Assembly: GCF_055900595.2 (NCBI RefSeq)
Contig: NZ_CM148325.1
Direction: 5' to 3' (one strand)
DNA: 64,000 bases
Of this stretch, positions 25,743 to 32,256 are shown piece by piece. Made by a program: the position numbers and the translations under genes. Each line of letters begins with the position of its first letter. Position 1 is the stretch's first letter. The notes beneath the pieces are model-generated. The model did not search any database, had not been told where the DNA came from, and saw only the letters and a program-made list of their open reading frames with translations.

Positions 25743-27839
25743 TTAGCGGAAATTGACGCTTCGGTCGCTGGTCATGTCATACAACTGGAACTTACGCCCA
25801 AGTTGCTGACCACCGTCACGCGTCAGCGGCGTCCAGCCAATTGCCGCTCGGCTACGAGTCGGGCCAGACGAGAAGAGATCCAACGGTACAGAGATATACA
25901 CGCCTTTGGTGAAGTCCCCTTCGCCGTACTCCTCTTTCGAAACATTCGTGATCGTGGCATACCCACCCACCACCACGCCGCTGTCAAAGCGTTTGGCTAT
26001 TTCCAGCGTGCCGCCTTTATCCCCTGCCAGATACTGCCCGACGCTGGCTTTCACTAATACATCCTGAGCGAAAGATGGCGTCCAGTAGGCGGTCAAATGA
26101 CCAGTTTTCACGCTGTAATCGGTGAATTTCATCATATCTTTCGCACTACGCCAGTCGCGCTGTTTAACGTAGTTAGCATCCAGACCAAACGCCCAGTTGC
26201 TATCCAGCGGGCGATACAATACTTCTGCCCCCGCGCCGCCAAACATGGTTTCGAGATAACCACCGTAGACCTGACCGTAGAAGCCGTTGCCCAGATGCTG
26301 AAAGTAGTTGGCTTGCAGGTTATTCACATAGACATCATTCTGCACATACTCACGCACATGGGTACGAACGCGCGGTAAGTGCGAGTCCTGCGGTGGATTG
26401 GTGTAATTAAACTTGTCGTAATTGTTCGCCAGGTTAGCAAACAGGCTACCGGTGGTCAGCAGATGGTCCGTCAGCCACAAATCCGCCGTTCCCATCACGC
26501 CCAACTGGTACATGTAAAAGTTTTCCGGGCCCCCGACCGACTGGTTCAGCACCGGATCGATATGGAAATCAAAGCGCGATTTGTCGATATACCAGCCCTG
26601 CTCAGTGGACGCAGGAACTACCGGCTCGACGCGTTTTTGCGCCAGCGTCGTTTCGTGGCCCAACGGCTCTCCGGCAAGATGATTTTTCAGGCTGGCGACA
26701 TCGGTTTCCGTCGTCACCTGCGGCATGTTAAGGCGATTTTCTGTAACGCGGATCGTCTTGATCCCCTCCGGCAGATCGTTCATCACGATCCGATTAGCAC
26801 GGATGATCCCTTCACGCGAATCACGATATTTCACCTGCTCACCGGTGACGTACAGCGTATCGCCTTTCGTCTGGATCTGCGGATCGGCCAGTCCGGCGTT
26901 GTATTTCAACAGCGTTAACTGATTCGCCACCACCGAATGCTGCAAAATGGCATCCTGTGGTTGCGGTTGATATTGCGGACGGGCGTTATCATTGTAGGAC
27001 GGGCGTAGATCGTTAAAGTTGGTACGCAGCGTGACGCCAAACATAAAGGTGTTACCGCGTTCATAGCTAAGGTTAACGTCGGCCCAATCGGTAACGCGAT
27101 AAATCGCCCCGACGTTAAACTTACTTTTTTGCTCCAGCTTCCCGGCAAAATCCTGCTGATAATTATTGCCTTCATACTCCAGTTTCAGACGCAGCGGCTG
27201 CCAGGGCGTCTGGTATTCCACGCCGCCAAACAGTGAGGCCGGACCGTGGAACATCTGGCTGCCGTCGATAGATCCCGCTTGTTTGTAGCTGTTATCGCGA
27301 TAGCAATATTTGTCACTGGCTGAACAGAGCGGATTTTTCACGTTACCGCTGGTGCCCAGATATCCCCAGCCCAGGCCGAGCGTAAAATCGAATGGCCCCC
27401 AGGCTTTGCTGGCGACAAGATATTCCGCATCGAACAGCCCCGTACCGCCGATATCCCGCGCACCAACCGCCACCTGTGGCAGCCAGTAACTCTCTTCCCA
27501 TAAACGCAGTTTGAGATCGAAGGCTTTATCTTTATACGTTTGATCACCAGAGAACGCTTCGACGCTGCTGTACTGCCGAGTGCGCACATCGGTATAACGC
27601 AGCGTTGTTTCCAACCACGGGAAGAGTTGCACCGAAGCAGAGTAATAACGGTACTGATCGTTATCGCGATAGTTCAGACTCAACTCCCCTTCCCGCGCCA
27701 TGCGCGCGGTAGGTGTTTGTAATAATCCTACACCACCGAAATCCGATTGCGACGGACCAATGGGCGCAGGATATGTTTCGCCATAGCAAGCCGTGCTAAT
27801 GCCCAGCGCCAGTAAACTAAGCAGATGTCTTTTTTTCAT
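25743..27839 (-). CDS. yjbH: YjbH, putative outer-membrane lipoprotein/porin of the yjbEFGH exopolysaccharide-associated operon
   Basis: 698-aa [54 protein letters not shown]...; its start overlaps the yjbG stop. Confidence 0.9.
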
Positions 27840-28576
27840 TATTGCGGTATCCGCTGCGTCAGAGTCTGAAGAATGTCGGCGTTAAGTGCATCAGGTGTCT
27901 CACTCCAGACGGAGTCCGCGAGGCCAACATAAATAATGCTGCCGGGCATCGGCTCTACGTGACGCTTGTTCCAGTAAGCCACCGGCGCTTTTTGCGTGCG
28001 TCCGTCCGGGTAAACCACCCACGCGTAGCTGCGATCCGCACCGCTGAGCAGGCTCTGGTCAGAGAGATAGCTCGCCACGTCGCGACCTGGAGTGAATGGC
28101 TGATTGCCAGGACGGCTGATAAGCCCGAATAACGTGACCGTGGACGGTGGTGGTCCGACCCACAGCGTGTAGTTGCCCTGCAACGGCGGGTTACCGCGTT
28201 CGGCAACGCGCACGATATCAGGATCAAGATTGATTTTTTGTCTGCCCGTCACCTTCAACGCCTGAATTTGCTGGCGTAAGGCGTTAATGGCGGCGGCATC
28301 GTCGGTGCTGGATTCTGAGGCCAGTTCTGCCAGCCTTGTCAGCAACGCCTGCTGCTGCCGTAATGCCGCCGCCGTTGCCAGCTCTTCGCTAATCACCGCA
28401 CCGGGCCACCAACTGTTTGCGAGCCGCGGTTGACCTACCAGATCAATTAAATGCTCTGCGCCTGTCAGCGTTTTGGCCTCATTGCTGCCATTACTGAACA
28501 CTTTGACGGTGCCTGCCGCAAAGACCGATGACGCTCCCACGCTCATAATCAACGCAGCAATAGTTTGTTTAATCAT
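27839..28576 (-). CDS. yjbG: YjbG, periplasmic protein of the yjbEFGH operon
   Basis: 245-aa product from the internal ATG ([27 protein letters not shown]...); ATGA overlap with the yjbF stop. Confidence 0.88.
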
Positions 28577-29211
28577 TGTTTTGCCGCCTTGATGAGAGTG
28601 GTTTTCACCGGGAAATAATCCGCGCCGAGATACTGTTCCGACTGGCGAATTTGCCCTTCGCTGTCGATCCAATAGCGGTTATGCCAGCGTGCCTGGTCGG
28701 TGGAGACTTCTTCGTCCAGCACACGAACCGGAGTTTCATCGCTACCGACTTTGACGGTATCGGTGCCATCCCATTTGAAAACCGAGCGTGCGGTGGCGTA
28801 GCGCACCTGCTGGTACTCGGTCCAGCCCATCGTGCGCGTCCAGGTTGCGCCATCAACAATTTGTGCGGGTTTTATCAGCGGGTCGGCGGCAAGGTTATTC
28901 ACTTCAATCAGGTTGTCGCCGCCAAGCAAAGTCTTCACCAGACGACCATGTTGTGTGACGAGAGTGGCCTGATCCTGAGTGACCCATTTTTGTTGTCCAT
29001 CTTCAGCGAAGGCCAGCACCACAAACAACTGCGGCCCGCCATTAAGCTGCATGTACTGGCTGGCATAGGGCATATTTTGAATATCATCGTCCGTCAGCTG
29101 TACGCCTGGCGTACCGAACAGACTGTCCCACAGTGAATTGCCCAGCTCTTTAGTCGTGGCTGAACAGGCCTGTAATAGCAGGCAGATAAGAATGAGTGCA
29201 GGTCGCTTCAC
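28573..29211 (-). CDS. yjbF: YjbF, lipoprotein of the yjbEFGH operon (GTG start; upstream in-frame ATG at 29241 possible)
   Basis: ORF with the lipobox-like segment LLQACSATT; 212 aa from the GTG at VKRPALILICLL. Confidence 0.85.
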   Translation of the reverse strand: MKRPALILICLLLQACSATTKELGNSLWDSLFGTPGVQLTDDDIQNMPYASQYMQLNGGPQLFVVLAFAEDGQQKWVTQDQATLVTQHGRLVKTLLGGDNLIEVNNLAADPLIKPAQIVDGATWTRTMGWTEYQQVRYATARSVFKWDGTDTVKVGSDETPVRVLDEEVSTDQARWHNRYWIDSEGQIRQSEQYLGADYFPVKTTLIKAAKQ

Positions 29212-29325
29212 GACTCTTCTCCAGAGGGGCAGAATAACCACACCGGAGTGTGGTTATGGTTAATCCCCGTCATACTTCAAGCCACAGATGCGATGACTCG
29301 AATTATTTTAGGGATACATACTTTA

Positions 29326-29568
29326 TTACTGGGTACTGGTGGTTGTGGTTGTTGTGGTCCCGGTATTAGAACCATCACCGCCACCGGTTGCCGCGAGCGC
29401 GACACCCACCGCCGAGCTTACGGTGCTGACGCTGGTCGCGGAGGAGCTACCCGCCGAAACCGACGTTGCTGCCGCCCCTGCCGCTTCGCCCACCTGTACA
29501 GGTGCAGCCCACGCAGAAGTCGCCGCAAGCGCAGATATGGCAAAAATGCCATACAGAACTTTTTTCAT
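29326..29568 (-). CDS. yjbE: YjbE, small secreted Ala/Gly/Ser/Thr-rich low-complexity protein
   Basis: 80-aa product [43 protein letters not shown]...[11 protein letters not shown]; first gene of the yjbEFGH operon. Confidence 0.88.
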
Positions 29569-29873
29569 AACAATTTCCCTTCATTGAATGAATGGAGATT
29601 TACCCAAAAACATTTCGGGCGGGATCGAGTATACACAACTAAAGCATGCGAATTACGGCGTGGGGAATTAGTGATGGGGTTTTAAGATAATTGGAATTAA
29701 TATCAAATATAAGTTTCAACTTATATATAAATAAGTTTAAAAATCAAAAAGTTAAAATAAAATCAAAAATGATTGACCTACGTATTTTCCGAAATAACCA
29801 CGATTAAAAATCTATTTTAGGATTAACCTCACGGTATGATTTCTGTTAAATCACAGACAAGGGGATTTATCTG

Positions 29874-29907
29874 ATAAAACAATGCCGACTTATAGTCGGC
29901 ATTGTTA
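29874..29907 (-). terminator. Candidate hairpin terminator downstream of pgi
   Basis: Perfect 13-bp inverted repeat aacaatgccgact-tata-agtcggcattgtt with a T-run on the minus strand. Confidence 0.5.
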
Positions 29908-29974
29908 TTAAGGTTATTTAATCAATCCTGCTATGTATTAATTGCCGAATACGATGTACATATCGGCATCGACC

Positions 29975-30054
<80 letters not shown>

Positions 30055-30082
30055 TATCATCGGCATCAGGTTCGCTCGATGA

Positions 30083-31732
30083 TTAACCGCGCCACGCTTT
30101 ATAGCGGTTAATCAGACCATTGGTCGAGCTATCGTGGCTGCTGATTTCTTTGTCATCTTTCAGCTCTGGCAGAATACGGTTCGCCAGCTGTTTACCCAGC
30201 TCCACGCCCCACTGGTCGAAGGTGAAGATGTTCAGGATCACGCCCTGAGTAAAGATTTTGTGCTCATACAGCGCAATCAACGCCCCCAGGCTGAACGGAG
30301 TGATTTCGCGCAACAGGATAGAGTTGGTCGGACGGTTACCTTCGAACACTTTGAACGGTACCACGTAGTCAAGCGTGGCCGGATCTTTACCCTGATCGCG
30401 ATATTCCTGCTCAACCACTTCGCGGGATTTACCAAACGCCAGCGCTTCGGTCTGAGCGAAGAAGTTAGACAGCAGTTTCTGGTGATGATCAGAGAGCGGG
30501 TTATGGGTGATAGCCGGGGCGATGAAATCGCACGGCACCATCTTCGTACCCTGGTGGATCAGCTGGTAGAACGCGTGCTGACCGTTAGTACCAGGTTCAC
30601 CCCAGATAATCGGGCCAGTCTGGTAATCCACAACGTTACCGTTACGGTCAACATACTTACCGTTGGACTCCATATTGCCCTGCTGGAAGTACGCTGCGAA
30701 ACGGTGCATATACTGGTCGTACGGCAGAATCGCTTCAGTTTCCGCGCCAAAGAAATTGTTGTACCAGATGCCGATCAGCGCCAGCAGTACAGGCAGGTTT
30801 TTCTCTGCAGGTGTGGTGGAGAAATGCTTGTCCATCGCGTGTGCGCCGGAAAGCAGTTCAACGAAGTTATCAAAGCCGATGGAGAGAACAATCGACAGGC
30901 CAATCGCTGACCATAAAGAGTAACGACCGCCGACCCAGTCCCAGAACTCGAACATGTTGGCGGTATCAATACCAAACTCACCAACGGCTTTGGCATTGGT
31001 TGAGAGCGCCGCAAAGTGTTTCGCAACGTGTTTTTCATCACCTGCCGCTTTCAGGAACCAGTCACGCGCGCTATGGGCGTTGGTCATAGTTTCCTGAGTG
31101 GTGAAGGTTTTAGACGCTACCAGGAACAGGGTGGTTTCCGGGTTTACTTTTTTCAGCACTTCCGCGATGTGAGTTCCATCGACGTTAGAAACAAAGTGCA
31201 TGTTCAGGTGATTTTTGTACGGACGCAGTGCTTCAGTCACCATGTATGGGCCGAGGTCAGAACCGCCGATCCCGATGTTCACTACGTCAGTGATGGCTTT
31301 GCCGGTATAACCTTTCCACTCACCGGAAATGATCGCTTCCGAGAAGGTTTTCATCTTCTCCAGCACGGCGTTAACTTCCGGCATGACATCTTTGCCATCA
31401 ACCAGAATCGGGGTATTGCTACGGTTACGCAGCGCTACGTGCAGTACGGCGCGGTTTTCGGTGCGGTTGATCTTCTCGCCAGAGAACATCGACTTAATCG
31501 CACTCGCCAGATCGCACTCTTTCGCCAGATCTTGTAATTTCGCCAGCGTCTCTTCAGTGATGCGGTTTTTGGAGTAATCCACCAGCATCTGATCGTCGAA
31601 GGTTGCGGAGAACTTAGAAAAACGATCGCCGTCTTTAGCAAAAAGATCGGCGATCGTAACGTCTTTCATTTCATCGAAGTGTTTCTGTAGTGCCTGCCAG
31701 GCAGCGGTCTGCGTTGGATTGATGTTTTTCAT
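30083..31732 (-). CDS. pgi: Glucose-6-phosphate isomerase
   Basis: 549-aa product [61 protein letters not shown].... Confidence 0.97.
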
Positions 31733-31974
31733 TAGCAATACTCTTCTGATTTTGAGAATTGTGACTTTGGAAGATTGTAGCGCCAGTCACAGAAAAATGT
31801 GATGGTTTTAGTGCCGTTAGCGTAATGTTGAGTGTAAACCCTTAGCGCAGTGAAGCATTTATTAGCTGAACTACTGACCGCCAGGAGTGGATGAAAAATC
31901 CGCATGACCCCATCGTTGACAACCGCCCCGCTCACCCTTTATTTATAAATGTACTACCTGCGCTAGCGCAGGCC

Positions 31975-32256
31975 AGAAGAGGCGCGTTGCCCAAGTAACG
32001 GTGTTGGAGGAGCCAGTCCTGTGATAACACCTGAGGGGGTGCATCGCCGAGGTGATTGAACGGCTGGCCACGTTCATCATCGGCTACAGGGGCTGAATCC
32101 CCTGGGTTGTCACCAGAAGCGTTCGCAGTCGGGCGTTTCGCAAGTGGTGGAGCACTTCTGGGTGAAAATAGTAGCGAAGTATCGCTCTGCGCCCACCCGT
32201 CTTCCGCTCTTCCCTTGTGCCAAGGCTGAAAATGGATCCCCTGACACGAGGTAGTT
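31975..32256 (+). promoter_or_regulatory. lysC 5' leader containing the lysine riboswitch (LYS element)
   Basis: Long structured leader directly upstream of lysC beginning AGAGGCGCGTTGCCCAAGTAACGGTGTTGGAGGAGCCAG..., which I recognise as the E. coli lysC lysine-riboswitch aptamer. Confidence 0.8.

Follow-up and report, generated by a model that had tools for sequence, protein, structure and literature searches.

The yjbEFGH operon of Escherichia coli and its AT-rich upstream control region: a conserved Thr-tailed small protein set apart from its partner genes by an invariant hairpin

The feature examined here lies in a window of 64,000 nucleotides, the whole stretch of DNA that was analysed, and is very probably the yjbEFGH operon of E. 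coli plus the control region in the spacer between pgi and yjbE. Its first gene, yjbE, most likely encodes a dedicated small envelope component that works with YjbFGH, as GfcA does with GfcBCD. The operon, its activation by Rcs/RcsA and its link to the production of an uncharacterised exopolysaccharide are published and already known, and the operon finding as stated adds nothing new; the title of a 2007 paper by Ferrieres, as cited by later papers, reportedly states that yjbEFGH is an operon. The genes are as follows.

25743-29568, minus strand: yjbEFGH operon (Pfam matches and RefSeq annotation).
29326-29568, minus strand: yjbE coding sequence, 80 aa (open reading frame list, Pfam PF11106, annotation and composition).
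29219-29222, minus strand: yjbF Shine-Dalgarno sequence GGAG, separate from yjbE (sequence).
28573-29211, minus strand: yjbF, a 212-aa lipoprotein with a GTG start (Pfam PF11102, 7e-64, and annotation).
27839-28576, minus strand: yjbG, 245 aa, GfcC family (Pfam PF20616 and PF06251).
25743-27839, minus strand: yjbH, 698 aa, an outer-membrane double beta-barrel (Pfam PF06082, 9.5e-271).

The initial annotation of this DNA had named the genes and their order, yjbE-F-G-H, and both the Pfam matches and the RefSeq annotation, matched in a RefSeq genome of 99.9% identity, agree with it. YjbE covers profile positions 1-79 of 79 in PF11106 (4.8e-33, 113.7 bits against a cut-off of 27.9). All four genes are intact in the window, and the locus was found in 5356 of 5426 complete E. 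coli genomes. YjbF is a GfcB-family lipoprotein, YjbG a GfcC-family periplasmic protein and YjbH a GfcD-family outer-membrane double barrel, the last covered in PMC8346858; the AlphaFold model of YjbH has two barrels plus a central domain. The order of a small Thr-rich leader gene followed by GfcB/YjbF, GfcC/YjbG and GfcD/YjbH is kept in 80 loci.

Translational coupling had been claimed throughout the operon, and the overlaps that point to it are present at two of the three junctions. The yjbF/yjbG junction is an ATGA overlap, kept in 70 of 78 species, and yjbG/yjbH is a 1-nt TAATG overlap, kept in 65 of 73; coupled translation of yjbF, yjbG and yjbH should yield the parts of the export machinery in matching quantities. 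Between yjbE and yjbF the claim fails: from the yjbE stop at 29326 to the annotated yjbF GTG start at 29211 there is a gap of 114 nt (60-187 nt in other species), which holds a conserved hairpin, and yjbF has its own GGAG Shine-Dalgarno sequence. We suggest that yjbE would be translated independently and that yjbF would restart from its own Shine-Dalgarno sequence and GTG.

The control region upstream of yjbE contains several elements, some conserved in sequence and others only in composition.

29576-29597, minus strand: invariant leader hairpin CTCCATTCATTCAATGAAGGGA, which pairs the Shine-Dalgarno sequence AAGGGA (RNAalifold).
29603-29623, minus strand: small variable hairpin CCCGCCCG...GGG near the presumed mRNA 5' end (RNAalifold).
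29625-29639, minus strand: invariant block GTTGTGTATACTCGA with a -10-like TATACT at 29628-29633 (conservation, 77 species).
29650-29810, no strand: AT-rich core, GC 0.19-0.27 (AT-richness conserved, sequence not).
29818-29831, minus strand: RcsB/RcsAB-like box TGAGGTTAATCCTA (published consensus; conserved block in 77 species).
29874-29906, minus strand: pgi intrinsic terminator hairpin, readable on both strands (sequence; stems covary among species).
29765-29913, plus strand: match to Rfam STnc430 (RF02053), a candidate enterobacterial sRNA, on the strand opposite to yjbE and pointing away from it (72.1 bits, gathering threshold 47).

The DNA upstream of yjbE had been described as very AT-rich, and indeed the lowest-GC 200-nt stretch of the entire window starts at 29681 (GC 0.235), with a GC of 0.19 over 29700-29799. 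The minimum 100-nt GC is 0.30 or less in 77 of 77 species, against a locus GC of 0.545, and the differences from K-12 cluster in the AT-rich core. About 350 bp had been assigned to the promoter; this stretch does hold the AT-rich control DNA, but it also takes in the pgi terminator. A REP/BIME element lies at 29979-30050, beyond that terminator. Since AT-richness is kept between box and promoter while the sequence is not, the intervening DNA may play its role through its shape or by binding nucleoid proteins. Promoters silenced by H-NS are expected to have AT-rich, curved DNA, and the AT-richness is found here, as judged by the lowest-GC stretch of the window and by all 77 species; the literature search found no statement linking yjbE and H-NS.

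No recognisable -35 was seen upstream of the -10-like TATACT, and a consensus scanner found no minus-strand promoter in the window; CTATACT is also present in Pantoea. A promoter of this kind, its start placed from sequence, would probably be activator-dependent, and RcsA-RcsB would bind the candidate box at 29818-29831, although the literature search turned up no report of binding at this site. The box has one mismatch to the published RcsB box TN(G/A)GAN4TC(T/C)NA (PMC7913699), and Pantoea has a perfect TTAGATAATTCTTA at the equivalent place. It is the only match to TNAGNNNNNTCCTA in the window, where 0.78 are expected by chance, so that the pattern alone is not statistically unusual. Allowing up to three mismatches, the full RcsAB consensus TAAGAATATTCCTA gave no match in the upstream region; the site is matched more closely by the core pattern and by the published RcsB box. 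The upstream distance from the -10-like element to the box is about 190 nt in E. coli and about 340 nt in Pantoea, so that either the box acts from afar or another promoter exists.

An envelope-stress-induced promoter had also been claimed, and published induction of all four genes bears this out. Colicin M gave log2 fold changes of 5.7, 5.7, 4.3 and 5.2 for yjbE, yjbF, yjbG and yjbH (PMC3599342), while a LolCDE inhibitor induced yjbE/F/G 15-46-fold and yjbH 5-10-fold (PMC5105897). All four genes are induced together on activation of the Rcs phosphorelay, and RcsA-RcsB dependence of yjbEFGH is stated in PMC5461412 and PMC5651002. Nearer the gene, the pairs of the small variable hairpin are kept by one-sided changes (UG/CG/UA), and the leader hairpin, folded with RNAalifold over 25 species, has 7 pairs essentially without variation. 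Lying as it does over the ribosome-binding site, this putative hairpin may control the start of translation.

The plus strand of the same region could instead carry an independent sRNA gene, STnc430, that starts near 29765, runs antisense to the pgi 3' UTR and ends at the bidirectional pgi terminator (29913). The Rfam score above the gathering threshold speaks for such a gene, as do matches in 14 of 19 species from many genera, in the pgi-yjbE spacer, always with this orientation and reaching 164 bits. The sole sigma70-like match in the region (TTTAAA-16-TAAAAT, 29736-29763, plus strand) ends 2 nt before it; however, that is one match where 2.4 are expected by chance, and none occurs at the equivalent place in Salmonella. 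Covariation is absent outside the terminator hairpin, the RNAalifold structure for 14 species has 6 pairs and 1 compensatory change, with 3 of the 14 sequences breaking two pairs, and the conserved blocks are those of the RcsB-like box and the pgi terminator, two elements that would be conserved anyway. Moreover, sRNAs such as MalH are included in the curated K-12 RefSeq record, yet it has no such entry at this locus, and the literature search found nothing relevant. We consider a separate sRNA gene unlikely, and read the region as the control DNA of yjbEFGH.

The product of yjbE had been described as an 80-aa signal-peptide protein composed mostly of Ala, Gly, Ser and Thr. This is confirmed: the signal peptide spans aa 1-21, and the 59-aa mature part is 76% A/G/S/T, or 88% with Val included. 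Two stretches of the coding sequence are of particular interest.

29338-29358, minus strand: Thr7 tract, aa 71-77, codons ACC ACA ACA ACC ACA ACC ACC.
29332-29412, minus strand: near-invariant C-terminal half of YjbE (column conservation 0.94, synonymous codon heterozygosity about 0.4).

The protein had been said to end in the Thr7 run, and the run is there, although it is not the literal terminus, since STQ follows it. About 75 of 80 species have a run of exactly this length, while each of its positions is encoded by 3-4 synonymous codons. Length variation of the tract across strains, which the initial annotation had proposed checking, is not borne out: in 58 of 60 sampled E. coli genomes YjbE gave a gap-free match, and one of the 60 carries an in-frame Thr9 allele, made by a third ACAACC unit. 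The codons of the tract are mixed (ACC/ACA/ACG), so there is no homogeneous repeat, and with a Thr7 that is also fixed across genera the tract does not fit a phase-variable contingency locus.

Selection on the YjbE protein is indicated by amino acids that do not change even though each site is encoded by 3-4 synonymous codons. Mean identity to the window is 0.90 for mature YjbE, 0.80 for YjbF, 0.66 for YjbG and 0.88 for YjbH. The parts under selection are the A-x-A|AP cleavage site, a G-E-A-A-G..A....G.S motif, a Gly/Ala/Val stretch and the Thr7-ST tail; in an alignment of 31 family members, distant ones included, the signal peptide, GEAAG..A....G.S, the Gly/Ala/Val stretch, GGGDGS.T and the Thr-rich tail are shared. 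The GGGDG.NTG-T7-ST part is kept in Pantoea and in distant family members, and the hydrophobic stretch before it differs there. Judged by these alignments, YjbE is not generic low-complexity filler, and selection acts on the protein.

A segment resembling a membrane helix precedes the Thr tail in distant members of the YjbE family and in GfcA, and for this reason the term "secreted" is uncertain. The corresponding stretch in the clade of the window is only weakly hydrophobic (KD 1.24, Hessa +5.2), which makes membrane anchoring uncertain as well; YjbE is possibly membrane-anchored, with its Thr tail on the cytoplasmic side. AlphaFold, given the 31-sequence family alignment, returned a pLDDT of 56 for YjbE and a low-confidence helix at 33-61. 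In a YjbH-(GGGGS)6-YjbE fusion YjbH folded, while YjbE was unstructured (pLDDT 21-26) and no docking was predicted, a weak test given the monomer weights, the linker, a shallow and partly paired alignment and an invariant YjbE. An exact-sequence cluster look-up with YjbE gave no match, and a word-indexed search gave mainly fragments and frameshifted variants, probably on account of low complexity; a profile search was used instead.

Taken literally, the initial annotation would amount to a fully coupled operon with a freely secreted low-complexity leader, a poly-Thr tract that varies and a silenced promoter, with H-NS as the presumed silencer, and we find that picture rather improbable. Much of what it was built on is real, namely the signal peptide, the composition, the overlaps at F/G and G/H and an AT-richness that is both extreme and conserved, and the second hydrophobic stretch of the enterobacterial proteins is so polar that a membrane helix cannot be assigned to it with confidence, which makes a soluble periplasmic or exported YjbE possible. 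Against it stand the 114 nt between yjbE and yjbF with the latter's own Shine-Dalgarno sequence, a Thr7 that is fixed across genera and gap-free in nearly all sampled E. coli, the membrane-helix-like segment of distant homologues and GfcA, and a literature search that found no H-NS data for the promoter. We favour a small envelope component conserved at the protein level and encoded by a gene separated from its partners.

The yjbE-yjbF gap holds two elements.

29262-29324, minus strand: ERIC/IRU-like repeat remnant, an insertion between the yjbE stop and the hairpin.
29234-29257, minus strand: invariant intercistronic hairpin ATAACCACAC-UCCG-GUGUGGUUAU (folding, conservation).

The repeat is a dispersed element that E. 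coli genomes carry in a median of 10 copies; a Citrobacter locus has a full-length copy at this very site, and E. coli EC-1639, which lacks the remnant, has a basic 63-nt spacer. The hairpin (-14.8 kcal/mol, z -4.85) has an 8-bp stem that is exact in 79 of 79 Enterobacteriaceae loci and the same in Pantoea. Its loop, closed by C-G, is UNCG in all 79 (UUCG in 71, UCCG in 3, UGCG in 3 and UACG in 2) and UUUC in Pantoea. In contrast, the pgi terminator of the same genomes has 61 distinct hairpin sequences among 66 loci.

A T-rich run follows the hairpin in most species (UU(U/C)G after ...GGUUAU), and the E. coli U-tract 3' of it is weak (UUAUUCUG). A terminator scanner calls the Pantoea copy a terminator, whereas neither the copy in the window nor that in Salmonella was called. 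Strong termination after yjbE is unlikely because yjbF is induced as strongly as yjbE, although such fold changes are uninformative on the absolute levels of the two. Literature searches on yjbE with terminator, RyhB or sigma70 variants found nothing relevant. We suggest that the UNCG hairpin would act on the RNA, either by terminating transcription weakly or by stabilising a 3' end, and would thereby set the amount of YjbE relative to YjbFGH.

It is also conceivable that the palindrome in the yjbE-yjbF gap works as DNA, as an operator to which a dimeric regulator binds, and not as an RNA hairpin. A perfect inverted repeat, AACCACAC-N4-GTGTGGTT, fully invariant and free of compensatory changes, is typical of protein-binding sites. 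However, over the 79 loci the central four nucleotides vary only within the UNCG family, which is a signature of RNA structure with no obvious meaning for a DNA site. The T-rich run in most species and the terminator call in Pantoea likewise fit an RNA element, as does the non-homologous gfcA-gfcB gap, which has a hairpin and U-run at the same position. A DNA operator is thus very unlikely, and we retain the RNA hairpin.

Two long open frames run antisense across yjbE.

29339-29587, plus strand: antisense open reading frame, 82 aa, a composition artefact (simulation, orthologues).
29248-29685, plus strand: second antisense open reading frame, 145 aa, with the same cause (open reading frame list; absent from the initial annotation).

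The first had already been suspected of being a composition artefact, and simulation and orthologues uphold this. When the YjbE protein was kept and its codons were replaced by random synonymous ones, the 29339-29587 frame was open by composition with P=0.51, versus 0.03 in ordinary gene segments, and the 29248-29685 frame was stop-free over yjbE with P=0.23, versus 0.31 in ordinary gene segments. The orthologue check and a Pfam scan covered the 29339-29587 frame only: in orthologues it is open over a median of 60 codons and, at the lowest, over 3, the start position varies, 10 species have no start codon, and the scan of its translation matched no family. A synonymous-site test is uninformative for this frame because its third codon positions coincide with those of yjbE. 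That either frame is a genuine overlapping gene is extremely unlikely in our view: both are open across the whole of yjbE, and the coinciding third positions leave the synonymous-site test unable to exclude coding in the first, but composition explains the openness of both, and the first is broken in orthologues and has no Pfam match.

The closest parallel to this arrangement is gfcABCD, compared here in E. coli K-12 (NC_000913.3); the yjb and gfc operons are treated as paralogues (PMC11494523, PMC8346858). The families and their order are the same (a Thr-rich signal-peptide protein, GfcB/YjbF, GfcC/YjbG and GfcD/YjbH), and the first gene is again followed by a gap, of 106 nt with a hairpin, and then by overlaps of 4 nt and 1 nt; the short overlaps of the gfc genes are also noted in PMC8592465. 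GfcA, which is annotated as an inner membrane protein, has the architecture of YjbE: its AFA|AP signal peptide is joined by a hydrophobic stretch of Gly/Ala/Val and by an acidic-Gly motif, after which comes a Thr-rich tail with R at its end. There are differences as well. No wza/wzb/wzc-type genes adjoin yjbEFGH, and the mature parts of GfcA and YjbE have no detectable homology: the Pfam YjbE profile misses GfcA, and hhalign aligns the signal peptide only. Threonines stand mostly before the hydrophobic stretch in GfcA and after it in YjbE, and the gfcA-gfcB hairpin is unrelated in sequence to that between yjbE and yjbF.

Intercistronic stem-loops set unequal expression within operons, for example at papB-papA and at the malE-malF REP. 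The yjb operon resembles these in having a stable hairpin right after a small first gene and before the genes for assembly or export machinery, where its function would be similar. It differs in that the yjb hairpin is far more conserved in sequence than is usual, and the induction ratios have no drop after yjbE.

The proposed promoter can likewise be set beside the RcsAB-box promoters of wza/cps colanic acid synthesis, RcsA-RcsB dependence being reported for both (PMC5461412, PMC5651002). The candidate box at yjbE resembles theirs in being pseudo-palindromic, with a single good TAGGA half-site, and in lying far upstream of the promoter. At yjbE, however, the distance from box to promoter is long and is not conserved between genera, and the DNA between them is extremely AT-rich.

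A bolder reading, which we offer as a long shot, is that leaders of the YjbE/GfcA type are sequence-specific, possibly membrane-anchored, Thr-tailed components of export, serving either as a protein primer or carrier of the exopolysaccharide or as a polypeptide threaded through a FapF-like N-terminal barrel of YjbH, with dosage set by the UNCG hairpin. The strong protein-level selection on the Thr7 motif is compatible with such a component, as is a hairpin conserved far beyond a normal terminator; no analysis here pointed to a direct contact between YjbE and YjbH. If this were true, part of what is scored as "EPS" would depend on, or contain, the YjbE mini-protein. Two details may be useful to work on gfc/yjb-type export: YjbE has a conserved Thr7 tail in a wider family that looks membrane-anchored, and between yjbE and the machinery genes stands a hairpin with the same stem throughout the Enterobacteriaceae loci compared. 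These are direct handles on a protein that recent papers call entirely uncharacterised.

The operon at 25743-29568 (minus strand) was correctly identified as yjbEFGH and is already known. Pfam assigns YjbE to PF11106 (113.7 bits), YjbF to YjbF/GfcB (PF11102), YjbG to the N- and C-terminal GfcC domains and YjbH to PF06082 (900 bits), and RefSeq annotates the same four genes in K-12 and in E. coli strain Z0117EC0005, to which the DNA is 99.9% identical. The locus was found in 5356 of 5426 complete E. coli genomes, and the local gene order is malG (+), psiE (-), yjbT (+), yjbH-yjbG-yjbF-yjbE-pgi (all -), a lysine riboswitch and lysC (+). The operon is listed among RcsA-RcsB targets (PMC5461412, PMC5651002), and osmotic induction and a negative effect of RpoS have been reported (PMC3599342). 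The comparison drew on 80 orthologues of the locus in different species of Enterobacteriaceae (YjbF identity 64-99%) and on one locus from Pantoea; in Escherichia whittamii (locus L003), YjbE is identical and YjbF 99% identical.

Several observations concern the neighbouring genes. The riboswitch (31969-32165, +), upstream of lysC, is full length at 99.5 bits and is also annotated by RefSeq. xylE, present in K-12 between psiE and malG, is absent from this lineage (24617-24720); at the junction (24625-24717) the malG 3' region matching the K-12 sRNA MalH is kept, terminator included, and similarity to K-12 ends directly after the T-run. Between psiE and yjbT lie weaker, partial naRNA4 REP/BIME copies (25228-25375) and a 47-aa ORF (25274-25417, -) that PGAP calls a hypothetical protein in two E. 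coli genomes and that is not in the curated MG1655 record.

Features of yjbE, the yjbE-yjbF spacer and the pgi-yjbE control region
29248-29685, plus strand: second antisense ORF, 145 aa
29262-29324: internally deleted ERIC/IRU-like remnant, about 52 nt extra in Escherichia, between the yjbE stop and the spacer hairpin
29326-29568, minus strand: yjbE ORF, 80 aa
29339-29587, plus strand: antisense ORF
29576-29597: invariant CTCCATTCATTCAATGAAGGGA, able to pair with the Shine-Dalgarno sequence
29603-29623: small variable hairpin in the upstream region of yjbE
29625-29639: invariant block GTTGTGTATACTCGA, containing a -10-like TATACT without a -35
29765-29913, plus strand: Rfam STnc430 match, above gathering
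29818-29831: putative RcsB-like box TGAGGTTAATCCTA, a conserved block
29979-30050: REP/BIME element in the pgi-yjbE intergenic region, beyond the pgi terminator (Rfam naRNA4, 74.7 bits)

The initial annotation described all four genes as translationally coupled. This holds for yjbF/yjbG, which overlap as ATGA (the 4-nt overlap is kept in 70 of 78 species), and for yjbG/yjbH, which overlap as TAATG (65 of 73). It does not hold for yjbE and yjbF: the yjbE stop is at 29326, and the GTG start of yjbF, with its own GGAG in front, lies 114 nt downstream at 29211. In most species this spacer is 60-65 nt long and is centred on a hairpin, UAACCACAC-UUCG-GUGUGGUUA, followed by UU(U/C)G, a C-rich stretch, the yjbF Shine-Dalgarno sequence and GTG. 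The 8-bp stem is exact in all 79 loci, and also in Pantoea. The loops of the 79 loci are UUCG (71 loci), UCCG (3), UGCG (3) and UACG (2), so that variation among them is confined to the free position of the C-G-closed UNCG tetraloop family. The pgi terminator of the same genomes served as an internal control: among 66 loci its hairpin has 61 different sequences, and compensatory changes are obvious. The spacer hairpin folds at -14.8 kcal/mol (z -4.85). A consensus scanner scored it as a terminator in Pantoea, where the tail is UUUUACUUUG, but in neither Salmonella nor the window, where the U-tract is weak. Strong termination is unlikely, since yjbE and yjbF are induced to a similar degree. We infer that the hairpin is an RNA element, acting as a weak terminator or a 3'-end stabiliser, which would uncouple yjbE dosage from yjbFGH.

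Insertions are found on both sides of this hairpin. A full-length ERIC/IRU-like element occupies the same spacer site as the Escherichia remnant in Citrobacter (locus L030, 3314-3450); the element is dispersed, at about 10 copies per E. coli genome, and the insert is polymorphic within the species, EC-1639 being without it. A weak Rfam isrH match at 29263-29315 is probably this same repeat, and a further locus cited beside the insert is L084 (1741-1803). On the 3' side of the hairpin, just 5' of the yjbF Shine-Dalgarno sequence, several Citrobacter and Enterobacter spacers (L004-L006, L009, L010, L024, L033, L036, L038-L040) carry a REP-like insert, GCCGGGTAAGCG..CGCCACCCGGC. With repeats on both sides, the spacer is therefore a repeated landing site, which small mobile repeats have entered more than once while leaving the hairpin undisturbed. 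IS1 insertions between yjbE and yjbF and within yjbF have been described with sedimentation phenotypes (PMC8117528), and in a laboratory strain derived from K-12 MG1655 (L089, NZ_CP010439.1) a copy of IS1A sits between pgi and yjbE, about 400 nt 5' of the latter.

The yjbE ORF is real, and its product has a signal peptide, as initially proposed; it is of the standard Sec type (MKK, then a hydrophobic core and AWA|AP). The mature 59 residues are 76% Ala/Gly/Ser/Thr, with two charged residues and no aromatic ones; the Thr7 run is present at residues 71-77, but the protein ends in STQ rather than in the run itself. Across the 80 Enterobacteriaceae loci the C-terminal half is essentially invariant, and Thr7 is fixed except in the Kluyvera group, where it is T5-S-T3. 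Mean identity to the window protein is 90% for mature YjbE, 88% for YjbH, 80% for YjbF and 66% for YjbG. Conserved YjbE positions use 3-4 synonymous codons per site (heterozygosity about 0.4-0.7), and because codons vary freely at fixed residues, the constraint is on the protein and not on the DNA or RNA. The invariant half and fixed tract rule out a drifting low-complexity protein. Variation in tract length between strains, which the initial annotation proposed to look for, is rare, since among 60 E. coli genomes sampled evenly down the ranking the tract region was gap-free in 58, and one had Thr9, the 6-nt unit ACAACC being present three times. In Citrobacter amalonaticus AUH_CA_2023_1 (L043) the YjbE N-terminus is swapped for out-of-frame sequence, likely through a frameshift or an error of assembly affecting the signal peptide; similar switches into antisense-like or alternative frames occur in several entries listed as 'YjbE' in databases (e.g. 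P0026, P0192).

When 1.84 billion cluster representatives were searched with a profile, no more than 37 relatives of YjbE were found. Leaving aside several frameshifted fragments and a single spurious match, they share a layout: behind an A-x-A|AP signal peptide come the motif G-E-A-A-G..A....G.S, some 20 residues of Gly/Ala/Val/Leu/Ile, GGG(D/N)GS.T and finally a tail rich in Thr, whose last residue is often R or K. In distant members the hydrophobic stretch equals their own signal peptides in hydrophobicity (KD 1.9-2.5, Hessa about +0.3 to +1.8) and resembles a membrane helix; the window's clade has a version softened by Ser/Thr (KD 1.24, Hessa +5.2). K-12 GfcA, annotated as a 'threonine-rich inner membrane protein', has the same architecture, although no homology is detectable between the mature proteins, and the gfc operon is arranged like yjb, with a 106-nt, hairpin-containing gap after gfcA and then overlaps of 4 nt and 1 nt. 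In recent papers GfcA and YjbE are still described as uncharacterised and as natively unstructured, and the N-terminal barrel of YjbH is placed in the FapF family (PMC11494523, PMC8346858, PMC9603273); glycosylation of GfcA and its export through GfcD have been offered as speculation (PMC8592465). AlphaFold modelled YjbE at low confidence, placing a helix at residues 33-61 and leaving the tail disordered, and a modelled YjbH-linker-YjbE fusion gave a folded YjbH and an unstructured YjbE (pLDDT 21-26), with no structural support for contact.

The upstream region is indeed very AT-rich: the lowest-GC 200-nt stretch of the whole 64-kb window starts at 29681 (GC 0.235), the next lowest lying at about 6600-7100, 15300-15500, 16200-16400 and 42600-42800. 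The 350 bp originally described also contain the pgi terminator hairpin (29874-29906). Every one of 77 species has a 100-nt stretch with a GC of 0.30 or less, against a locus GC of 0.545; composition of the core is conserved, sequence is not, and it is here that the differences from K-12 are concentrated. When 29200-30100 was compared with E. coli genomes, 14 of 5471 matching records were at least 99% identical and most 94-95%; the AT-rich core and REP content account for most of the differences. Composition suggests that the promoter may be silenced; a literature search found no statement on H-NS at the yjbE promoter. The RcsB-like box is one position off the published TN(G/A)GAN4TC(T/C)NA (PMC7913699), and Pantoea has a perfect match, TTAGATAATTCTTA, in the same place. 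In E. coli the box lies about 190 nt from the putative promoter; in Pantoea the distance is about 340 nt.

The STnc430 match, to a candidate sRNA family, recurs in the same orientation in 14 of 19 species. Its 3' hairpin is the pgi terminator on the opposite strand, and one conserved internal block is the reverse complement of the RcsB-like box. With RNAalifold no structure was supported by covariation, the sigma70-like hexamers just 5' of the match are not conserved in Salmonella, and the curated K-12 record has no RNA gene at the site. An actual sRNA seems to us unlikely, and we treat the match as conserved regulatory DNA plus terminator that an Rfam model incidentally fits. A perfect palindrome, TTATCTGATAA (29867-29877), adjoins the pgi terminator inside the match and is nearly invariant in 14 species.

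The antisense ORF at 29339-29587 is, as first suggested, an artefact of composition. A stop in its frame requires a yjbE Tyr, His or Gln codon preceded by a pyrimidine, and none of the three such codons in YjbE has that context; with the protein held constant and synonymous codons randomized, the frame was stop-free in 51% of simulations, versus 3% for ordinary gene segments of equal length. Among orthologues the median length of the open stretch is 60 codons and the shortest is 3; the position of the start shifts, and 10 species lack a start codon; a Pfam scan of the translation matched no family. The second antisense ORF is probably likewise a product of composition.

What this adds to a known operon is modest and testable: an invariant UNCG hairpin and a strictly conserved YjbE tail.
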